A stretch of DNA of 64,000 nucleotides, taken from sequence record MZ501067; one strand, 5' to 3'. Position numbers and translations under genes: made by a program. The stretch is from Escherichia phage FriedrichZschokke. Each line of letters begins with the position of its first letter. The stretch's first letter is position 1. Shown piece by piece: positions 5,493-46,513 of the stretch. The notes beneath the pieces are model-generated. The model saw nothing but the letters and a program-made list of their open reading frames with translations. It was not told the origin of the DNA and ran no database searches.

Positions 5493-6056
5493 TTACCATT
5501 CCAATGCTAGTTTTTTGAGTTGTTTCTGTTCTTTTACGTTCTTAGTCACTTCTTTCAAAAAATCATCCGTGACTAATCCTTTAAGTTCTTTTAATACTAA
5601 AGGTAGTTTTCCATTTTTAGTAAGAATTGATTTATAGTTAATTGCATCATTTGTATTAACTTGATACCGCTTAGCAAGTAACTTAATAATCAATACTTCG
5701 GTGGAATCTTCAACTAGTTTTGCCCATTTACCATATCTTTTACCACGAGGAACTGCAGCCATTAGATAATTAAAATGAGCTTCATCACTTAAGCCTGATC
5801 CAATTAAATTCATAGCATATACAGCTGGCATGCACTCTGGAAATTGTGATAATGCATTTTCAACCATGAATTTTGAATAATCTTTTTGAGCAATAGAGCA
5901 TTTAGTTTTATTATTAATAGCTCCAATTATTTCAAAAAATTCATTTTCAGCTTTTTCTTTAAAAGTATCAGCAGCAGATTGGACAGCTGTCCAATCTTTA
6001 GAATACCAAGCAACTTGATGCTCGTTTAATTGAATATCATCTTCAAATAAGCTCAT
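5493..6056 (-). CDS. 62: Clamp loader small subunit
   Basis: 187 aa; immediately downstream of 44. Confidence 0.9.
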
Positions 6057-6057
6057 A

Positions 6058-7017
6058 TCACTTCCACTGCATTTCGCATGCTAATTGAATGAAAAGATAA
6101 GCTAAATGCAATTCAGTATTAGCTGCAATACCATGATACTGATTATTTTCGCCGACAATTTCGTACATACGAATAATACTCTGTGGTGTTACACGTGAAT
6201 AGATTTCTTCGGCAAGTTTACCCACGAACCACGAATAATCGGCTGCATATTTTGGTGCTAAAGCTCTGAGTTGTTTAACATCTTTATTTTTGAGAGACTC
6301 AAGAACATCATCAATAGCACCACGATCGTTAGTAACCAGTGATAAAATACCAGCATCCAAAACACCTTTAGATGAATAGCTATCGAGCTCGCCAATAGTT
6401 TTACGAAAATCAGGAAAATTCTTTTTAACCAAAGCTGCTACAACTTTCATATCAGCTATAGCAATACCTTCATGTTTACAGATTTCAGTCAATCGACGAA
6501 TCATCTGCTTCATCATTTCAATTTTATCTTCATCGGTCGGTTGACCGAACGTAATAACTCGGCAGCGTGACTGAAGTGGTTTAATAATACCATCAATATT
6601 GTTAGCAGTAATAATAATACTACAGTTTGAACTATAAGCTTCCATAAAGGAACGAAGATGTCGCTGAGATTCTGCTAAACCTGAGCGGTCAAATTCATCA
6701 ATAACGATTACTTTTTGACGACCATCAAATGAAGCTGCACTCGCAAAATTAGTTAAAGGACCACGAACGAAATCAATTTTACAGTCTGATCCATTTACAA
6801 ACATCATATCAGCATTTACATCATGACACAATGCTTTTGCTACAGTTGTTTTACCTGTTCCTGGAGAAGGAGAATGAAGAATAATATGTGGAATCTTACC
6901 TTTACTTGTAATAGATTTAAAGGTTTCTTTATCAAAGGCGGGAAGAATACATTCATCGATAGTAGATGGACGATATTTCTGTTCAAGAATGTGTTCTTTT
7001 TCATTTACGGTAATCAT
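6058..7017 (-). CDS. 44: Clamp loader ATPase subunit
   Basis: Walker A GTGKTT and DEFD Walker B; start placed at MITVNEK (319 aa) rather than the 5 codon longer ORF. Confidence 0.92.
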
Positions 7018-41563: not shown

Positions 41564-41582
<19 letters not shown>

Positions 41583-42052
41583 TCAGTGATAAAGTTATTT
41601 AAATTTTGAGTATATTTCTTTTCATCAAAAATCCTTTGTTGTCTGCGTAGCCGCCATGGCATTTCAATGAACGTGTACCATATCCCAGATAATATTGCTG
41701 CTGTAAAAATATTAACAAGTATGGTTAAAAGAATCCAATCTCCTATTCTGTCCATTGGATTTTTTATAAAAAAGTAAAATACGAATGATGTCACAGGAAA
41801 ACTAATAATGTACCACAGAATCATAATTTTATCTGTGAACCAATCAGCATTTGTTAACTTAGCACGACCATTATGAATACACACGAATTTATCATCTGTT
41901 ATAATAGATGGCTTAGCTGCTTGATATCCCATTCTAAACTCCCTAATCAACAAATTTTTCATATCTTCGGAACAACCATTCCAGTCAACTCTATTAACTG
42001 AAATGCCATCATCCCCATCATCTAAATCATACCAGCGAGTTTTTAAAATCAT
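41564..42052 (-). CDS. Membrane protein (162 aa) with C-terminal FITECRKLK motif
   Basis: Two hydrophobic helices; C-terminus NNFITECRKLK. Confidence 0.55.
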
Positions 42053-42423
42053 TTAATTTTCCTACAATCATTCACGAATTCTTTCATTGATTCATTTTCA
42101 ATATAAGACATGTAGTTATTATATTCTTTTAATTGTATTTTGTAATCCTTTTTTCTTTGCCAATTTATTTTAAAATTATCATAATGAAAATATAAAATGA
42201 TACTAAAGAATGAAAATAATGAAATTGCTATAGTATAATGAAGTTCACTCCAAACTTCTATTATATCTACTATACCGCTGACGTTACTGCGGATGTTTAA
42301 AATAATACAGTCAATCATTAATCCAATAAGACTACCAGCAAGAGCTGCAGCCAACGCCACAGCAAAAATTAAAAATGACTCAGAAAAAGAATATTTGACT
42401 TTATTTAGTTTTGGCTTTTGCAT
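42049..42423 (-). CDS. Membrane protein (124 aa) with C-terminal FVNDCRKIK motif
   Basis: Two hydrophobic helices; C-terminus KEFVNDCRKIK. Confidence 0.55.
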   Translation of the reverse strand: MQKPKLNKVKYSFSESFLIFAVALAAALAGSLIGLMIDCIILNIRSNVSGIVDIIEVWSELHYTIAISLFSFFSIILYFHYDNFKINWQRKKDYKIQLKEYNNYMSYIENESMKEFVNDCRKIK

Positions 42424-42797
42424 CGTGATTCCTTAACAAATTTCATAATTTCATTAAATTCATACATATTTAGTTTAAGCTGGTGTTCCTTTTTAATCTT
42501 TTTACACTGAGCTTTCCATTCACGTACACGTTTACGATAATGCCTTCCTTGATACCAATATCCTACCCAATTTACAGGTACCAATAAAAATGGAACTACT
42601 AATGGAAGAATTAATACTAACAAAAATATTACGCCAGATTTAATATCAGTCATAAAGTCTATAACCATTCCAACAATCAATAGAATTACAAATGATATAG
42701 CTGTCACAGGACCTATTAATACATCAGTAGGAATTAGCTGACGTTTTAGTTCATACTTCACAGGTTCACTTGGAAGGTATAGTGATGGCTTTGACAT
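42405..42797 (-). CDS. Membrane protein (~130 aa) with C-terminal FVKESRCK motif
   Basis: Two hydrophobic helices; start trimmed to an internal Met; still overlaps its upstream neighbour. Confidence 0.5.
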   Translation of the reverse strand: MSKPSLYLPSEPVKYELKRQLIPTDVLIGPVTAISFVILLIVGMVIDFMTDIKSGVIFLLVLILPLVVPFLLVPVNWVGYWYQGRHYRKRVREWKAQCKKIKKEHQLKLNMYEFNEIMKFVKESRCKSQN

Positions 42798-43371
42798 ATT
42801 CTCTACATTCCTTAACAAATTTTTCTAATAATAAATCGCTTTCAAAATTAGGATTTTCTACGAATTTATCAAAAAGATCATCAACAATAGTTAAGATATT
42901 CTTTTTACTAAGAATACGTTTATTTTCATGCTTTGTTTCAGAATCAACTATAAGAGTAAAGAAATATTTCTTGCCCTGAAATTTTACAGTAGTATCAATA
43001 TAGAATAAATTTGACTTTTGTAAATTACGTTTAAACCATGCATCACTTAAACTATAAACACCAAGATAATCATAATCGTCGTTTAAATAACATACTGTCC
43101 ATTCAGGAGAAATGAAATCAGTAAATTCAACATCAAAATCACATGTTAATGAATGAATTGATTCAATACTGTTAATAAGTATTCCAGGACGTATTAAAGA
43201 CTTTTTACCTTTATAAAATCCAGAAAGACTTTCATCAGTTTCATATGAAGAACCCCAATAATAATTACGTCCTTCTGCCATACGTTTAAGAGCATTTAAT
43301 AATTGGTCTGGAACATCAACCTGTCTTTGGAACTCTTCAAACATTGAATTGAAATCACTTTGCATTTTCAT
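42766..43371 (-). CDS. Hypothetical protein (201 aa) with near-C-terminal FVKECRE motif
   Basis: Soluble; ...LLEKFVKECREYVKAITIPSK. Confidence 0.55.
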   Translation of the reverse strand: MKMQSDFNSMFEEFQRQVDVPDQLLNALKRMAEGRNYYWGSSYETDESLSGFYKGKKSLIRPGILINSIESIHSLTCDFDVEFTDFISPEWTVCYLNDDYDYLGVYSLSDAWFKRNLQKSNLFYIDTTVKFQGKKYFFTLIVDSETKHENKRILSKKNILTIVDDLFDKFVENPNFESDLLLEKFVKECREYVKAITIPSK

Positions 43372-43392
43372 TCCTACTTACTCCAAGTAATA

Positions 43393-43408
43393 GGGGCCGA
43401 AGCCCCTT
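43393..43408 (-). terminator. Hairpin / weak terminator
   Basis: Minus RNA aggggc-UUCG-gccccu with a modestly U-rich tail. Confidence 0.4.
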
Positions 43409-43412
43409 ATCA

Positions 43413-44006
43413 TTATTTCAGAGAATTAATGTATTCCTGAACATCGGCAGAGGTAGTTTCAACCCCAGAAATATTGCCATTAAAGGTTTCAACTCGAGCA
43501 AGAGTATCTTCAATATCAACCTTAGTCAGTGCTGCAATTTCAACTACATCATCAGCAGTACTAATTCCAAGGGCATTTGCTGCACGAGTTTCACGGATAT
43601 ATTCCAATTTAACTGCAAGTTCTTGGCGAGCATCATCCAATTCAACTACTTTCTTGGCGATTTCAATTCGCATTTCAGCATAACCATCAGCTTTAGTAGT
43701 CAACTGTTCAGCTGTTCGACGATATAGCAAGCCGAGTTTAGCATGCATTGTTACATCTTGACCTTCAGAAAGAAGCTTGCGAATTTCACGCTCTTTTGAT
43801 TCGGCCTGTCGATTCTTTTCGACAATAAGTTCACGAATACGTTTTTCTTCATTAATAGATTTAACAGAAGCAGTTTTTAGATCTTTAATCTTATCAAGTA
43901 GTTTTGCTGCCGCAGCAGTATACTGTTCTTCAACAGATAGATTTTTAGCCATAGCAGAACCAAGTTTAGTGCGAATAAACTCAACAATTTTCTTCAGTGT
44001 GTTCAT
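43413..44006 (-). CDS. Coiled-coil protein (197 aa), PspA/IM30-like by composition
   Basis: Entirely helical, charged, heptad-rich; resemblance to PspA judged by eye only. Confidence 0.5.
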
Positions 44007-44063
44007 AGTATTTCCTTAGGTTGGTATAATTAGATAATATCACGTTTCTAATAGATTGTAAAC

Positions 44064-44419: not shown

Positions 44420-44460
44420 AAGTCTATAGTAACGCCTTCATACTTAGATGTAAACTATTT
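44420..44460 (-). promoter_or_regulatory. Early promoter
   Basis: Minus strand: -35 TTTACA (44449-44454), 17 bp spacer, -10 TACTAT (44426-44431). Confidence 0.5.
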
Positions 44461-44610
44461 CAACATCGCCTTTTGCTGTTTTATAACCTTCAGCCCAAGA
44501 TACAACCGAGTTTTTATCTGAAGATTCAAATTCTGGCATTGGGCTTTCGCCAATGTTCACGCAGTATGTTTCTTCATTTTCGTCGAACCAAATAATTAAA
44601 GTAGTCATTT
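44449..44610 (-). CDS. Small hypothetical protein (~53 aa)
   Basis: ORF read by hand (MTTLIIWFDENEETYCVNIGESPMPEF...); below the track cut-off. Confidence 0.35.
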
Positions 44611-45491: not shown

Positions 45492-45567
45492 TGGTCGAGG
45501 CAGTAGGGATCGAACCTACGACCCAGGACTTAGAAGGTCCTTGCTCTTCCTTCTGAGCTATGCCCCG
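45492..45567 (-). tRNA. tRNA-Arg (anticodon UCU)
   Basis: Hand-folded cloverleaf: 7 bp acceptor, T-loop UUCGAUC, anticodon loop CUUCUAA; CCA encoded. Confidence 0.85.
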
Positions 45568-45571
45568 TAAT

Positions 45572-45647
45572 TGGGGTGACCGATGGGAGTCGAACCCATG
45601 ACTACGAGAATCACAATCTCGAGTTCTACCAACTGAACTACGGCCAC
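45572..45647 (-). tRNA. tRNA-His (anticodon GUG)
   Basis: Hand-folded cloverleaf: anticodon loop UUGUGAU, discriminator C73, CCA encoded; no G at position -1 (U instead). Confidence 0.75.
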
Positions 45648-45761
45648 ATTAATACCTACTCCAACAATCAAGATGTCTTCACACGAAATTAAGAGAAGAG
45701 TGATCAGTTCAACCCCTATAATCGCGTCAAGTAGATATTAATGTGACAGTTGTCACAAATT

Positions 45762-45836
45762 TGGCGGACGTGATAGGATTCGAACCTATAACCAATCGCT
45801 TAACAGGCGATCGCTCTGCCATTGAGCTACACATCC
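45762..45836 (-). tRNA. tRNA-Asn (anticodon GUU)
   Basis: Hand-folded cloverleaf: anticodon loop CUGUUAA, T-loop UUCGAAU, CCA encoded. Confidence 0.8.
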
Positions 45837-45840
45837 AAAT

Positions 45841-45927
45841 TGGTGGGGAGTGGTGGAGTCGAACCACCCGAGTCGCAATGACAATGGATTTACAGTCCAC
45901 ACCGCTACCTCTACGGGATAACTCCCC
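45841..45927 (-). tRNA. tRNA-Tyr (anticodon GUA), long variable arm
   Basis: 87 nt; perfect acceptor GGGGAGU/ACUCCCC; anticodon loop CUGUAAA; variable region resembles E. coli tRNA-Tyr; CCA encoded. Confidence 0.8.
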
Positions 45928-45940
45928 TTAATTCTTAATT

Positions 45941-46015
45941 TGGTGGCCCTGGGTGGAATTGAACCACCATCTGGCGATTATGAGTCGCTTGCTTGAACCT
46001 TCCAGCTACAGGGCC
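45941..46015 (-). tRNA. tRNA-Ile (anticodon CAU, lysidine-type; Met not excluded)
   Basis: Anticodon stem-loop AGCGA-CUCAUAA-UCGCC closely resembles E. coli tRNA-Ile2; paired head-to-tail with tRNA-Thr as in the T4 Thr-Ile dimer. Confidence 0.75.
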
Positions 46016-46016
46016 T

Positions 46017-46092
46017 TGGTGCTGATTGACGGAATCGAACCGCCGACCTTCTCATTACAAGTGAGTTGCTCTACCTACTGAGCTAAATCAGC
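46017..46092 (-). tRNA. tRNA-Thr (anticodon UGU)
   Basis: Hand-folded cloverleaf: anticodon loop CUUGUAA; CCA encoded. Confidence 0.8.
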
Positions 46093-46097
46093 AAAAC

Positions 46098-46187
46098 TGG
46101 CGGAGGCGATAGGATTTGAACCTATGAGTCGCCGGAGCGACTGCCGGTTTTCAAGACCGGTGCATTAAACCACTCTGCCACGCCTCC
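46098..46187 (-). tRNA. tRNA-Ser (anticodon UGA), long variable arm
   Basis: 90 nt; anticodon stem-loop CCGGU-CUUGAAA-ACCGG; CCA encoded. Confidence 0.8.
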
Positions 46188-46189
46188 AG

Positions 46190-46263
46190 TCTCCATACAA
46201 GGATTTGAACCTTGGACCTCCTGATCCCAAATCAGGCGCTCTACCAAACTGAGCTACACGGAG
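46190..46263 (-). tRNA. tRNA-Pro (anticodon UGG)
   Basis: Anticodon loop UUUGGGA; CCA not encoded; 2 nt from tRNA-Ser (dimeric precursor arrangement). Confidence 0.8.
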
Positions 46264-46273
46264 TAAATTAAAT

Positions 46274-46347
<74 letters not shown>

Positions 46348-46352
46348 AAATT

Positions 46353-46439
46353 TGGTGCGAGAAGTGGGACTCGAACCCACAAGGAAATCATTCCGCAGCA
46401 TTTTAAGTGCTGTGCCTTTACCAATTTGACCATTCTCGC
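46353..46439 (-). tRNA. tRNA-Leu (anticodon UAA), long variable arm
   Basis: 87 nt; anticodon stem-loop CAGCA-CUUAAAA-UGCUG; CCA encoded; 1 nt from tRNA-Gln. Confidence 0.8.
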
Positions 46440-46440
46440 G

Positions 46441-46513
46441 CTGGGAATAAAGGACTCGAACCTTTGCATCCTGGAATCAAAATCCAGTGCCTTACCAACT
46501 TGGCTAATTCCCA
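46441..46513 (-). tRNA. tRNA-Gln (anticodon UUG)
   Basis: UGGGAAU acceptor; anticodon stem-loop CUGGA-UUUUGAU-UCCAG; resembles E. coli tRNA-Gln; CCA not encoded. Confidence 0.85.

Follow-up and report, generated by a model that had tools for sequence, protein, structure and literature searches.

The closest described systems to the gene considered here are those of PspA and Vipp1 (IM30), which make up the bacterial branch within the ESCRT-III superfamily. In these proteins the first helix, α0, is an amphipathic helix that anchors the protein to the membrane. PspA has the membrane partners PspB and PspC, with the C-terminus of PspC binding PspA, and in a similar arrangement LiaI anchors LiaH; induction of pspA in the host depends on sigma-54 and PspF, and the E. 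coli PspA hairpin (residues 1–144; PDB 4WHE) is the PspF-binding domain. Here we describe the e.6 gene of Escherichia phage FriedrichZschokke (sequence record MZ501067), a Tequatrovirus (T4-type) genome of which a stretch of 64,000 nucleotides (nt), called the window, was analysed; all open reading frame (ORF) positions are given on this whole stretch. T4 is the best-studied lytic phage, and about half of its genes are without a function. An earlier note, made from the letters of the window alone, had ascribed a PspA/IM30-like character to the e.6 product, and this is borne out by profile comparison, by alignment of alignments with controls and by the predicted fold. We conclude that e.6 is very probably a real, highly divergent and shortened PspA/Vipp1 homologue.

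This relationship has already been published twice, and the present analysis is an independent confirmation with controls. The genome announcement of Klebsiella phage Metamorpho (2021) names gp163 as a homologue of T4 e.6 and reports an HHpred match of 99.9% to E. coli PspA, 4WHE_A (PMC7862958). Gendre et al. (2022) found Gp_125 of the Salmonella Kuttervirus SeF3a, a member of phrog_1203, to be homologous to PspA by HHpred/HHsearch and proposed it as a novel anti-abortive-infection (anti-Abi) factor that keeps the proton-motive force (PMF) from being dissipated (PMC9409062). Both proteins belong to the same family as e.6, and both reports are annotation remarks that contain no experiments (PMC7862958, PMC9409062). 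A review from 2025 on ESCRT-III-like systems in bacteria and archaea names phage only as a stress trigger (PMC7619361).

The e.6 reading frame lies on the minus strand, with its ATG at 44006 and its stop at 43413–43415, and encodes 197 amino acids (aa), exactly as the earlier note had placed it. Its T4 orthologue is gene e.6, to whose product it has 99.5% aa identity and which is annotated in T4 as a ‘conserved hypothetical protein’. The 594-nt query is 100% identical to sequences in slur02/04/11/13, PhiZZ23 and other phages, with 638 phage records matched by megablast, and tblastn found homologues in 1106 phage records, their identity falling from 100% to about 30% while their length is kept. 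Because length is retained across these 1106 records, because the protein matches phrog_1203 from end to end (E 1.1e-87; PHROG function listed as unknown), and because mass spectrometry has detected the protein in T4, e.6 is a real gene. The homologues come from phages of Aeromonas, Serratia, Klebsiella and other hosts and are 20–30% identical among each other. A word-indexed search returned 48 related proteins, all from T4-type phages, and an exhaustive profile search of 1.84 billion representatives gave only 45 matches (weakest E 3e-4), those of full length measuring about 195–209 aa; judged from these sequences, the family is thus narrow and constant in length. A canonical PspA of greater length is absent from the 45 matches, and HMMER by itself therefore does not connect e.6 to bacterial PspA. 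As a separate observation on annotation, ‘e.6’ of RB43 (NC_007023) is recorded at 294 nt (97 aa; locus L003:4001-4447), with a tblastn match that begins 153 nt upstream of the annotated start, and in the other RB43 record, HE858210, the e.6 match covers nearly the full length; the RefSeq coding sequence is probably mis-started or frameshifted.

The connection to PspA emerges once distant family members are included in the profile. A 50-sequence e.6 profile was assembled from the closer sequences and the distant members recovered by the exhaustive search, the latter being required to reach PspA. Against PDB sequences its top eight matches (E 7.6e-5 to 2e-3) are without exception Vipp1/PspA, from Synechocystis (sll0617) and Nostoc (Vipp1), in a colinear alignment of e.6 1–146 on Vipp1/PspA 1–147. 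With a shallower profile (30 sequences, identity of 47% or more) Vipp1 was found at no better than E 1.4–3.4, yet already over the whole length and in register. When each of the 50 members was scanned against Pfam, PspA_IM30 (PF04012) was found in four, a count tied with three other families, and was by far the most significant family (best E 8.9e-10). Specifically, the distant members P0065 and P0066, which come from phages of the Ackermannviridae type, pass the PF04012 gathering score (35.1 and 39.0 versus 33.9 bits; residues 6–146 on profile positions 2–143), and both are full-length members of the e.6 family, with E-values of 1.5e-21 and 2.9e-20 to the e.6 profile. The P0066 gene carries a precomputed PF04012 match, lies on phage contigs with adjoining uvsX- and DnaB-type genes, and encodes a protein about 77–85% identical to Ackermannviridae phage proteins; by tblastn, P0066 links Kuttervirus proteins with the gene annotated as e.6 in Aeromonas phage 44RR2.8t (E 2e-9) and with the RB43 e.6 region (E 1e-18).

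As a check, the earlier note had proposed HHpred against the PspA/ESCRT-III family. For hhalign, a PspA/Vipp1 alignment was composed of E. coli-type PspA sequences and two Vipp1 sequences. The e.6 family alignment matched it with a probability of 91.5% (E 8.7e-7) over 169 columns, e.6 1–177 lying on PspA 1–172. In a local repeat the real pair scored 44.6 over 170 columns; reversal of the PspA/Vipp1 alignment gave 20.2 over 33 columns, reversal of the e.6 alignment gave 20.8 over 33 columns, and the maximum among 30+ column shuffles was 20.1. All controls thus score under half of the real pair, so the match between e.6 and PspA is not accounted for by composition and heptad spacing.

The predicted structure leads to the same family. 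The earlier note had called the protein an entirely charged helix, which goes slightly too far. D/E/K/R make up 34% of the residues, with Pro, Cys and Trp absent, and in an AlphaFold2 model built on the 30-sequence alignment (mean pLDDT 74.7), DSSP assigns about 83% of residues to helices, namely 3–22, 25–80, 86–145 and three short ones. The C-terminal quarter is not confidently helical, residues 146–185 being of low confidence and partly non-helical in the model. The hairpin helices 25–80 and 86–145 are modelled with pLDDT 81–94 over residues 31–130 and 75 over residues 131–140, and the motif at the hairpin tip, G-x-[DE]...A-x-x-L, aligns with PspA/Vipp1. As modelled, e.6 is predicted to contain the long α1/α2+3 hairpin by which the ESCRT-III core fold is recognized. 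In a Foldseek search of PDB, ranks 1–8 are all Vipp1 (E 3.7e-4 to 7e-3), archaeal CdvB/CdvB2 follow from rank 9, and PspA 7abk stands at rank 26; the hairpin superimposes on Vipp1 6zvs_A with an rmsd of 2.8 Å over 120 columns. In BFVD the best fold matches are e.6 homologues, followed by a protein of Acinetobacter phage ME3 labelled ‘PspA/IM30 family protein’ and by giant-virus Snf7.

Multiple alignment places e.6 and E. coli PspA in the same register throughout, including the α0–α1 linker, the Gly of the hairpin tip and a C-terminal L-x-x-L-K. The helix at residues 3–22 is cationic (net +3) and moderately amphipathic (μH 0.38), though not beyond what shuffles give. In the C-terminal region, where short helices at 156–161, 165–175 and 186–196 are modelled with low confidence, the residues conserved in the family are G147, T174-F175, Y192 and the S-L-K end; hhalign pairs e.6 ARVETFNG with PspA ARFESFER, and MAFFT sets e.6 VQEYINSLK under PspA ISEQLAQLKAK.

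Several observations weigh against the family assignment. As a single sequence, e.6 has no PF04012 match at E<=1 in Pfam, gives nothing in NCBIfam and finds no match among PDB sequences; together with PADLOC, these searches returned no PspA, just weak and scattered coiled-coil families. Because the single sequence fails to reach PspA in Pfam or PDB, membership depends on profiles and transitivity, and the relationship, as read from sequence comparison, is remote. HMMER bias is high (16–18 bits) in the alignments of the 50-sequence profile with PDB, and coiled-coil proteins are prone to spurious matches. The helix in register with α0 is poorly modelled (pLDDT about 49), and its μH is no better than that of shuffles (p 0.16). 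The region corresponding to α4/α5 is about 25 residues shorter than in PspA, with low confidence in the model, and because α5, shortened here, matters for polymer contacts in Vipp1/PspA, polymerization of e.6 is not assured.

Some of these points could be taken to mean that e.6 is a generic charged coiled coil that resembles PspA through heptad composition rather than common ancestry, as the missing single-sequence match, the high compositional bias and the many other coiled-coil families with weak E-values in the profile and Pfam searches would allow. The matches, however, are not local but full-length and in register from residue 1; PspA/Vipp1 fills all of the first eight ranks in the sequence-profile search and again in the fold search, two family members pass the curated Pfam threshold, and the reversed controls, which keep composition and heptad spacing, drop to 33 columns and less than half the score. 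Independent HHpred results agree (PMC7862958, PMC9409062). The reversed and shuffled controls largely refute a chance resemblance, which we consider very improbable.

Comparison with individual systems defines how far the likeness extends. E. coli PspA (PF04012; 4WHE) and e.6 as modelled share the overall helix order, beginning with α0 (putative in e.6), then a linker at 22–25, a hairpin tip near residue 80 and short C-terminal helices (of low confidence in e.6), and they are similar in size (222 aa and 197 aa) and in charged residues (37% and 34%). They differ in sequence (identity about 13–14%), in the roughly 25 residues missing from e.6, mostly in α4/α5 and at the C-terminus, and in the α0–α1 linker, which is K-A-E-D-P-E/Q in PspA and K-N-x-S-x-E in e.6; moreover, PspA is encoded in a sigma-54 psp operon with pspF/B/C, whereas e.6 belongs to a lytic phage and follows a site resembling an early promoter. 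The best profile and fold matches are to Vipp1/IM30 of cyanobacteria (Synechocystis sll0617, Nostoc punctiforme; 7O3W, 6ZVR, 8QBR, 9EOM), but Vipp1 has an extra C-terminal helix, α6, and a longer α4/α5; the global TM-scores of 0.45–0.54 with the e.6 model are low because the solved Vipp1 polymers are in open conformations. Within the phage family, the Kuttervirus versions are nearer to canonical PspA, in that they pass Pfam, and are followed by a phrog_11433 membrane protein and not by an e.5-like gene. Archaeal CdvB (Foldseek ranks 9–20) and eukaryotic ESCRT-III (Snf7/CHMP) share the superfamily fold, but the matches are weaker (E 0.04–0.1), a Vps4/MIT partner or MIM motif is not evident, and those systems act in scission, not in repair. 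Carriage of such a gene by a phage is not unique to this family, because Acinetobacter phage vB_AbaM_ME3 also encodes a PspA/IM30 family protein (BFVD A0A172Q0S7); with 15% identity to e.6 and a weak fold match (E 8e-3, TM 0.46), this is probably a separate, more canonical acquisition.

With regard to function, a PspA homologue with a membrane-protecting action is the best explanation of e.6 as a whole, and we hold it with moderate confidence; for the mechanism of protection outlined here our confidence falls a little short of even. We propose that e.6, as PspA does, would attach to the inner membrane from the cytoplasmic side, using its hairpin and its cationic N-terminal helix, that the membrane-bound protein would polymerize into ESCRT-III-type assemblies, and that these would seal or stabilize stressed membrane and limit ion leakage, so that the PMF is kept. 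T4 rapidly shuts off host transcription and gene expression. An infected cell would be unable to induce its own psp operon, and because the shut-off blocks sigma-54-dependent psp induction, the phage may supply its own PspA effector in the form of e.6. The leaks against which e.6 could guard include those from genome injection, from early membrane proteins of the phage, from superinfection or from membrane-targeting abortive-infection effectors. The T4 holin fires upon collapse of the PMF, and e.6 would in this way also prevent premature PMF-triggered holin firing and loss of energy. If e.6 does work as an ESCRT-III/PspA-type protein, the virus brings its own membrane-repair machine into a cell whose stress responses have been silenced; this would matter for understanding how the timing of lysis is kept safe from a holin triggered too early, and for the question whether phages turn PspA-like proteins against membrane-targeting abortive infection. 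A predicted protein of ESCRT-III type in T4, a model phage, deserves experimental study, although nothing in our results overturns expectations; their value lies in confirmation with controls, correction of a database label and a lead to candidate partners.

That label is ‘host specificity protein’, given to e.6 homologues in numerous GenBank/UniRef records, one of which cites ACLAME family 1259, while a record from Klebsiella phage UPM 2146 has ‘tail completion protein’; on this basis e.6 would be a virion or host-range protein. No similarity to tail, fibre or baseplate families was found in Pfam, PHROGs, PDB or BFVD beyond mislabelled homologues. The gene has an early promoter-like site and an early RNA class, whereas virion genes are late, and it is located among early accessory genes outside the structural module. 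Since sequence, fold, promoter and gene position give no support, we rejected both the ‘host specificity’ and the ‘tail’ label, to which we attach practically no credence, and the former looks like a propagated mis-annotation.

The expression of e.6 is known from T4 and agrees with the signals around the gene. T4 e.6 (T4p129, P39224) is classed as ‘early RNA, middle protein’ and its product was seen by mass spectrometry, and T4 e.4, e.5, e.7 and e.8 are classed as early/early (PMC9697503 supplement); the promoter-like site ahead of e.6 in the window agrees with the early RNA class. From the e.6 stop to the e.5 start downstream there are 42 nt, and the perfect tetraloop hairpin between them has no T-run after it on the coding strand; because of this it is, from its sequence, more likely an RNA-stabilizing or processing element than a strong terminator.

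In T4, dCas13d knock-down of e.6, and likewise of each of e.2–e.8, was scored ‘Not Fit’, meaning that a fitness cost was absent in the laboratory host; e.6 is listed there under phrog_1203 with unknown function (PMC11879866 supplement). We count this result for an accessory role of e.6, and its absence of effect in the laboratory host speaks against the membrane-protection reading. It is also compatible with the main rival, in which e.6 is a PspA-derived anti-Abi protein dedicated to counter-defence. Its biochemistry would be as outlined above, with a different biological target: it would neutralize suicide effectors that depolarize or perforate the inner membrane (Rex-type, transmembrane (TM)-effector CBASS/retron, AbiZ-like), and general upkeep of the membrane would not be its selected role. 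Such a role has been proposed in print for phrog_1203 (PMC9409062), and it would suit a gene that is dispensable in a laboratory K-12/B-type host, as expected of a conditional anti-defence gene, that is expressed early, and that sits among small accessory early genes whose functions are not known. On the other side, the broad conservation of the family across T4-type phages and Ackermannviridae, at constant length, is more typical of core-accessory physiology than of fast-turnover anti-defence; PADLOC, which holds defence and not anti-defence models, has no match for e.6 or its neighbours. We regard dedicated counter-defence as unlikely, if a serious contender.

The part of PspA that is best preserved in e.6 raises a further explanation, in which the protein is a regulatory mimic whose hairpin binds host PspF or PspB/PspC and manipulates or blocks the phage-shock response, rather than acting on lipid. 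The protein keeps exactly the hairpin part that binds PspF, and its shortened C-terminal region could mean that polymer contacts have been lost. On the other hand, early shut-off of host transcription by T4 leaves little to be gained from control of a sigma-54 regulon, identity to E. coli PspA is just about 13–14%, and homologues in Aeromonas, Serratia and Klebsiella phages that are 20–30% identical to one another fit a single host interface poorly. We consider regulatory mimicry improbable and continue to favour protection of the membrane, against which one more point is to be set. The genes pspB, pspC and pspF are not nearby: none of e.2–e.5, e.7 and e.8 matches a Pfam family significantly, their PHROGs are listed without a function, and Pfam/PHROG searches show no homology of e.2–e.4 to PspB/C, so the classical Psp operon association, or one with LiaI/LiaF-type partners, is not found here; by analogy, e.2–e.4 could nevertheless be counterparts of the Psp membrane partners.

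Table 1. Positions of e.6, its regions, signals and neighbours in the window, and of tail-motif genes near e.6 homologues elsewhere.
Feature	Position	Strand	Basis or remark
e.6 coding sequence, 197 aa + stop; very probable divergent PspA/IM30 homologue	43413..44006	-	ORF, identity to T4 e.6, phrog_1203, profile and fold comparison
e.6 residues 3-22, N-terminal helix in register with PspA/Vipp1 α0	43941..44000	-	DSSP; profile, hhalign and multiple alignment from residue 1
e.6 residues 25-145, predicted α1/α2+3 hairpin, turn 81-85 (SEGQD), ESCRT-III fold core	43572..43934	-	Model, Foldseek, alignments
e.6 residues 146-197, C-terminal region, shorter than PspA α4/α5	43416..43571	-	Model, hhalign, MAFFT, conservation
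Ribosome-binding site AAGGA, 7 nt before e.6 ATG	44013..44017	-	Read from sequence
Promoter-like GTTTACA-N17-TATTAT with TG, T4-early type	44034..44062	-	Consensus scan and sequence; putative promoter function
Stem-loop AGGGGC-UUCG-GCCCCU, perfect tetraloop hairpin, between e.6 stop and e.5 start	43392..43407	-	Sequence
e.5, 201 aa, no predicted TM, tail ...LEKFVKECREYVKAITIPSK, FVKECREYVK; candidate e.6 partner	42766..43371	-	phrog_2607, tail motif
e.4, small membrane protein, tail Ser variant ...KFVKESRCKSQN, FVKESRCKSQN	42405..42818	-	ORF, PHROG, TM, motif scan
e.3, small membrane protein, tail ...EFVNDCRKIK	42049..42423	-	ORF, PHROG, TM, motif scan
e.2, membrane protein, 162 aa, intact here, tail FITECRKLK	41564..42052	-	ORF, PHROG, TM, motif scan
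44RR2.8t, ORF055c			Downstream of e.6 homologue; FVDYCRR
Aeromonas phage 65.2, APU01760			Downstream of e.6 homologue; FIKECR
Aeromonas phage 65.2, APU01759			Next gene; FVNECR
Moonvirus CF1, 214-aa protein			Downstream of e.6 homologue; FINLCR
Moonvirus CF1, TM protein			Three genes downstream; FIENCK
SonariX, two genes			Downstream; FINYCR, FIRICRK
Metagenomic T4-type contig L012, one gene			Downstream; FIDECK
RB43, ORF268			One gene further on; FIHSCKK
Tail-motif genes elsewhere	L007:5630-6418; L008:5646-6933; L012:4039-4605; L003:4780-5397
Tail-motif genes elsewhere	L015:4653-5318, 5876-6229; L016:4648-5292, 5708-6076

The order of genes around e.6 is that of T4: denV, lysozyme e, nudE, e.2, e.3, e.4, e.5, e.6, e.7, a 54-aa ORF, e.8 and the tRNA cluster (Table 1). 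According to the earlier note, e.6 lies directly beside a block of membrane proteins with a shared C-terminal tail. This was essentially right: e.4, e.3 and e.2 combine the tail with predicted TM segments, and e.5, which is next to e.6, has the tail and no predicted TM segment. A scan of the 337 window ORFs of at least 40 aa found the tail motif F-[IV]-x-x-C-[R/K], with a Ser variant in e.4, to be confined to the four consecutive genes e.2–e.5, and three of them (e.2, e.3 and e.5) have a strict form, F-[IVL]-x-x-C-[RK], among their 30 C-terminal residues.

The association of the motif with e.6 extends well beyond the window. We examined the neighbourhoods of e.6 homologues through annotated phage records and contig look-ups, and in distant phages the gene that starts 30–44 nt after the e.6 homologue ends in the tail motif; the genomes with a motif gene after e.6 comprise Tequatrovirus, Moonvirus, Biquartavirus, Ishigurovirus, SonariX and a metagenomic T4-type contig. 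The tail is the best-conserved part of these downstream proteins, the remainder of which can barely be aligned, with only weak PHROG cross-hits (phrog_13418, phrog_10830). In Ackermannviridae, the gene after the e.6 homologue encodes either a phrog_11433 membrane protein or a small protein that lacks the motif in its strict form. Homologues of e.5 have a precomputed Pfam match, PF26876, a family that is absent from the Pfam copy used, so that e.5 has no match there. The AlphaFold model of e.5 is poor (pLDDT 56, too poor for a fold search) and suggests a mixed α/β character, with the tail carried by a predicted C-terminal helix.

Because the gene pair is conserved and the motif is common to adjacent small membrane proteins, the tail may recruit e.6; by analogy to PspC–PspA or LiaI–LiaH, it could bring e.6 to the membrane. 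The tail motif beside e.6 is thus a new lead and suggests a phage Psp-like module. The fuller version of this idea, in which e.6 would be the effector of a phage-encoded Psp-like membrane-stress module and the tails of e.2–e.5 would dock an e.6 polymer at the inner membrane, is drawn by analogy, and we consider it doubtful. We also considered whether the tail merely results from start signals of the following gene that overlap it; its conservation at the protein level across differing gene arrangements argues against this, although no formal test was made.

Some variation in the neighbouring genes was apparent relative to T4. In T4 strain GT7, the A-run in e.2 (L002:6947-7434) is one nt shorter (TTTTTTAT-AAAAATCC), which shifts the frame; the annotated e.2 there is only 102 aa, and its C-terminal part, comprising the second TM segment and the FITECRKLK tail, is found in a separate 63-aa ORF. 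Between e.7 and e.8, the window has the 54-aa ORF (44444-44608, minus strand), a member of phrog_5461 (E 2e-35) that is annotated in phage slur04 and has no counterpart in T4 GT7, where the gap between e.8 and e.7 is 56 nt. The tRNA cluster (45492-46513, minus strand) has no segB homing-endonuclease gene inside it, and the listed ORFs that overlap its tRNA genes are unlikely to be real genes. The cluster contains eleven tRNA genes (Arg, His, Asn, Tyr, Met, Thr, Ser, Pro, Gly, Leu and Gln), compared with eight in T4 GT7.

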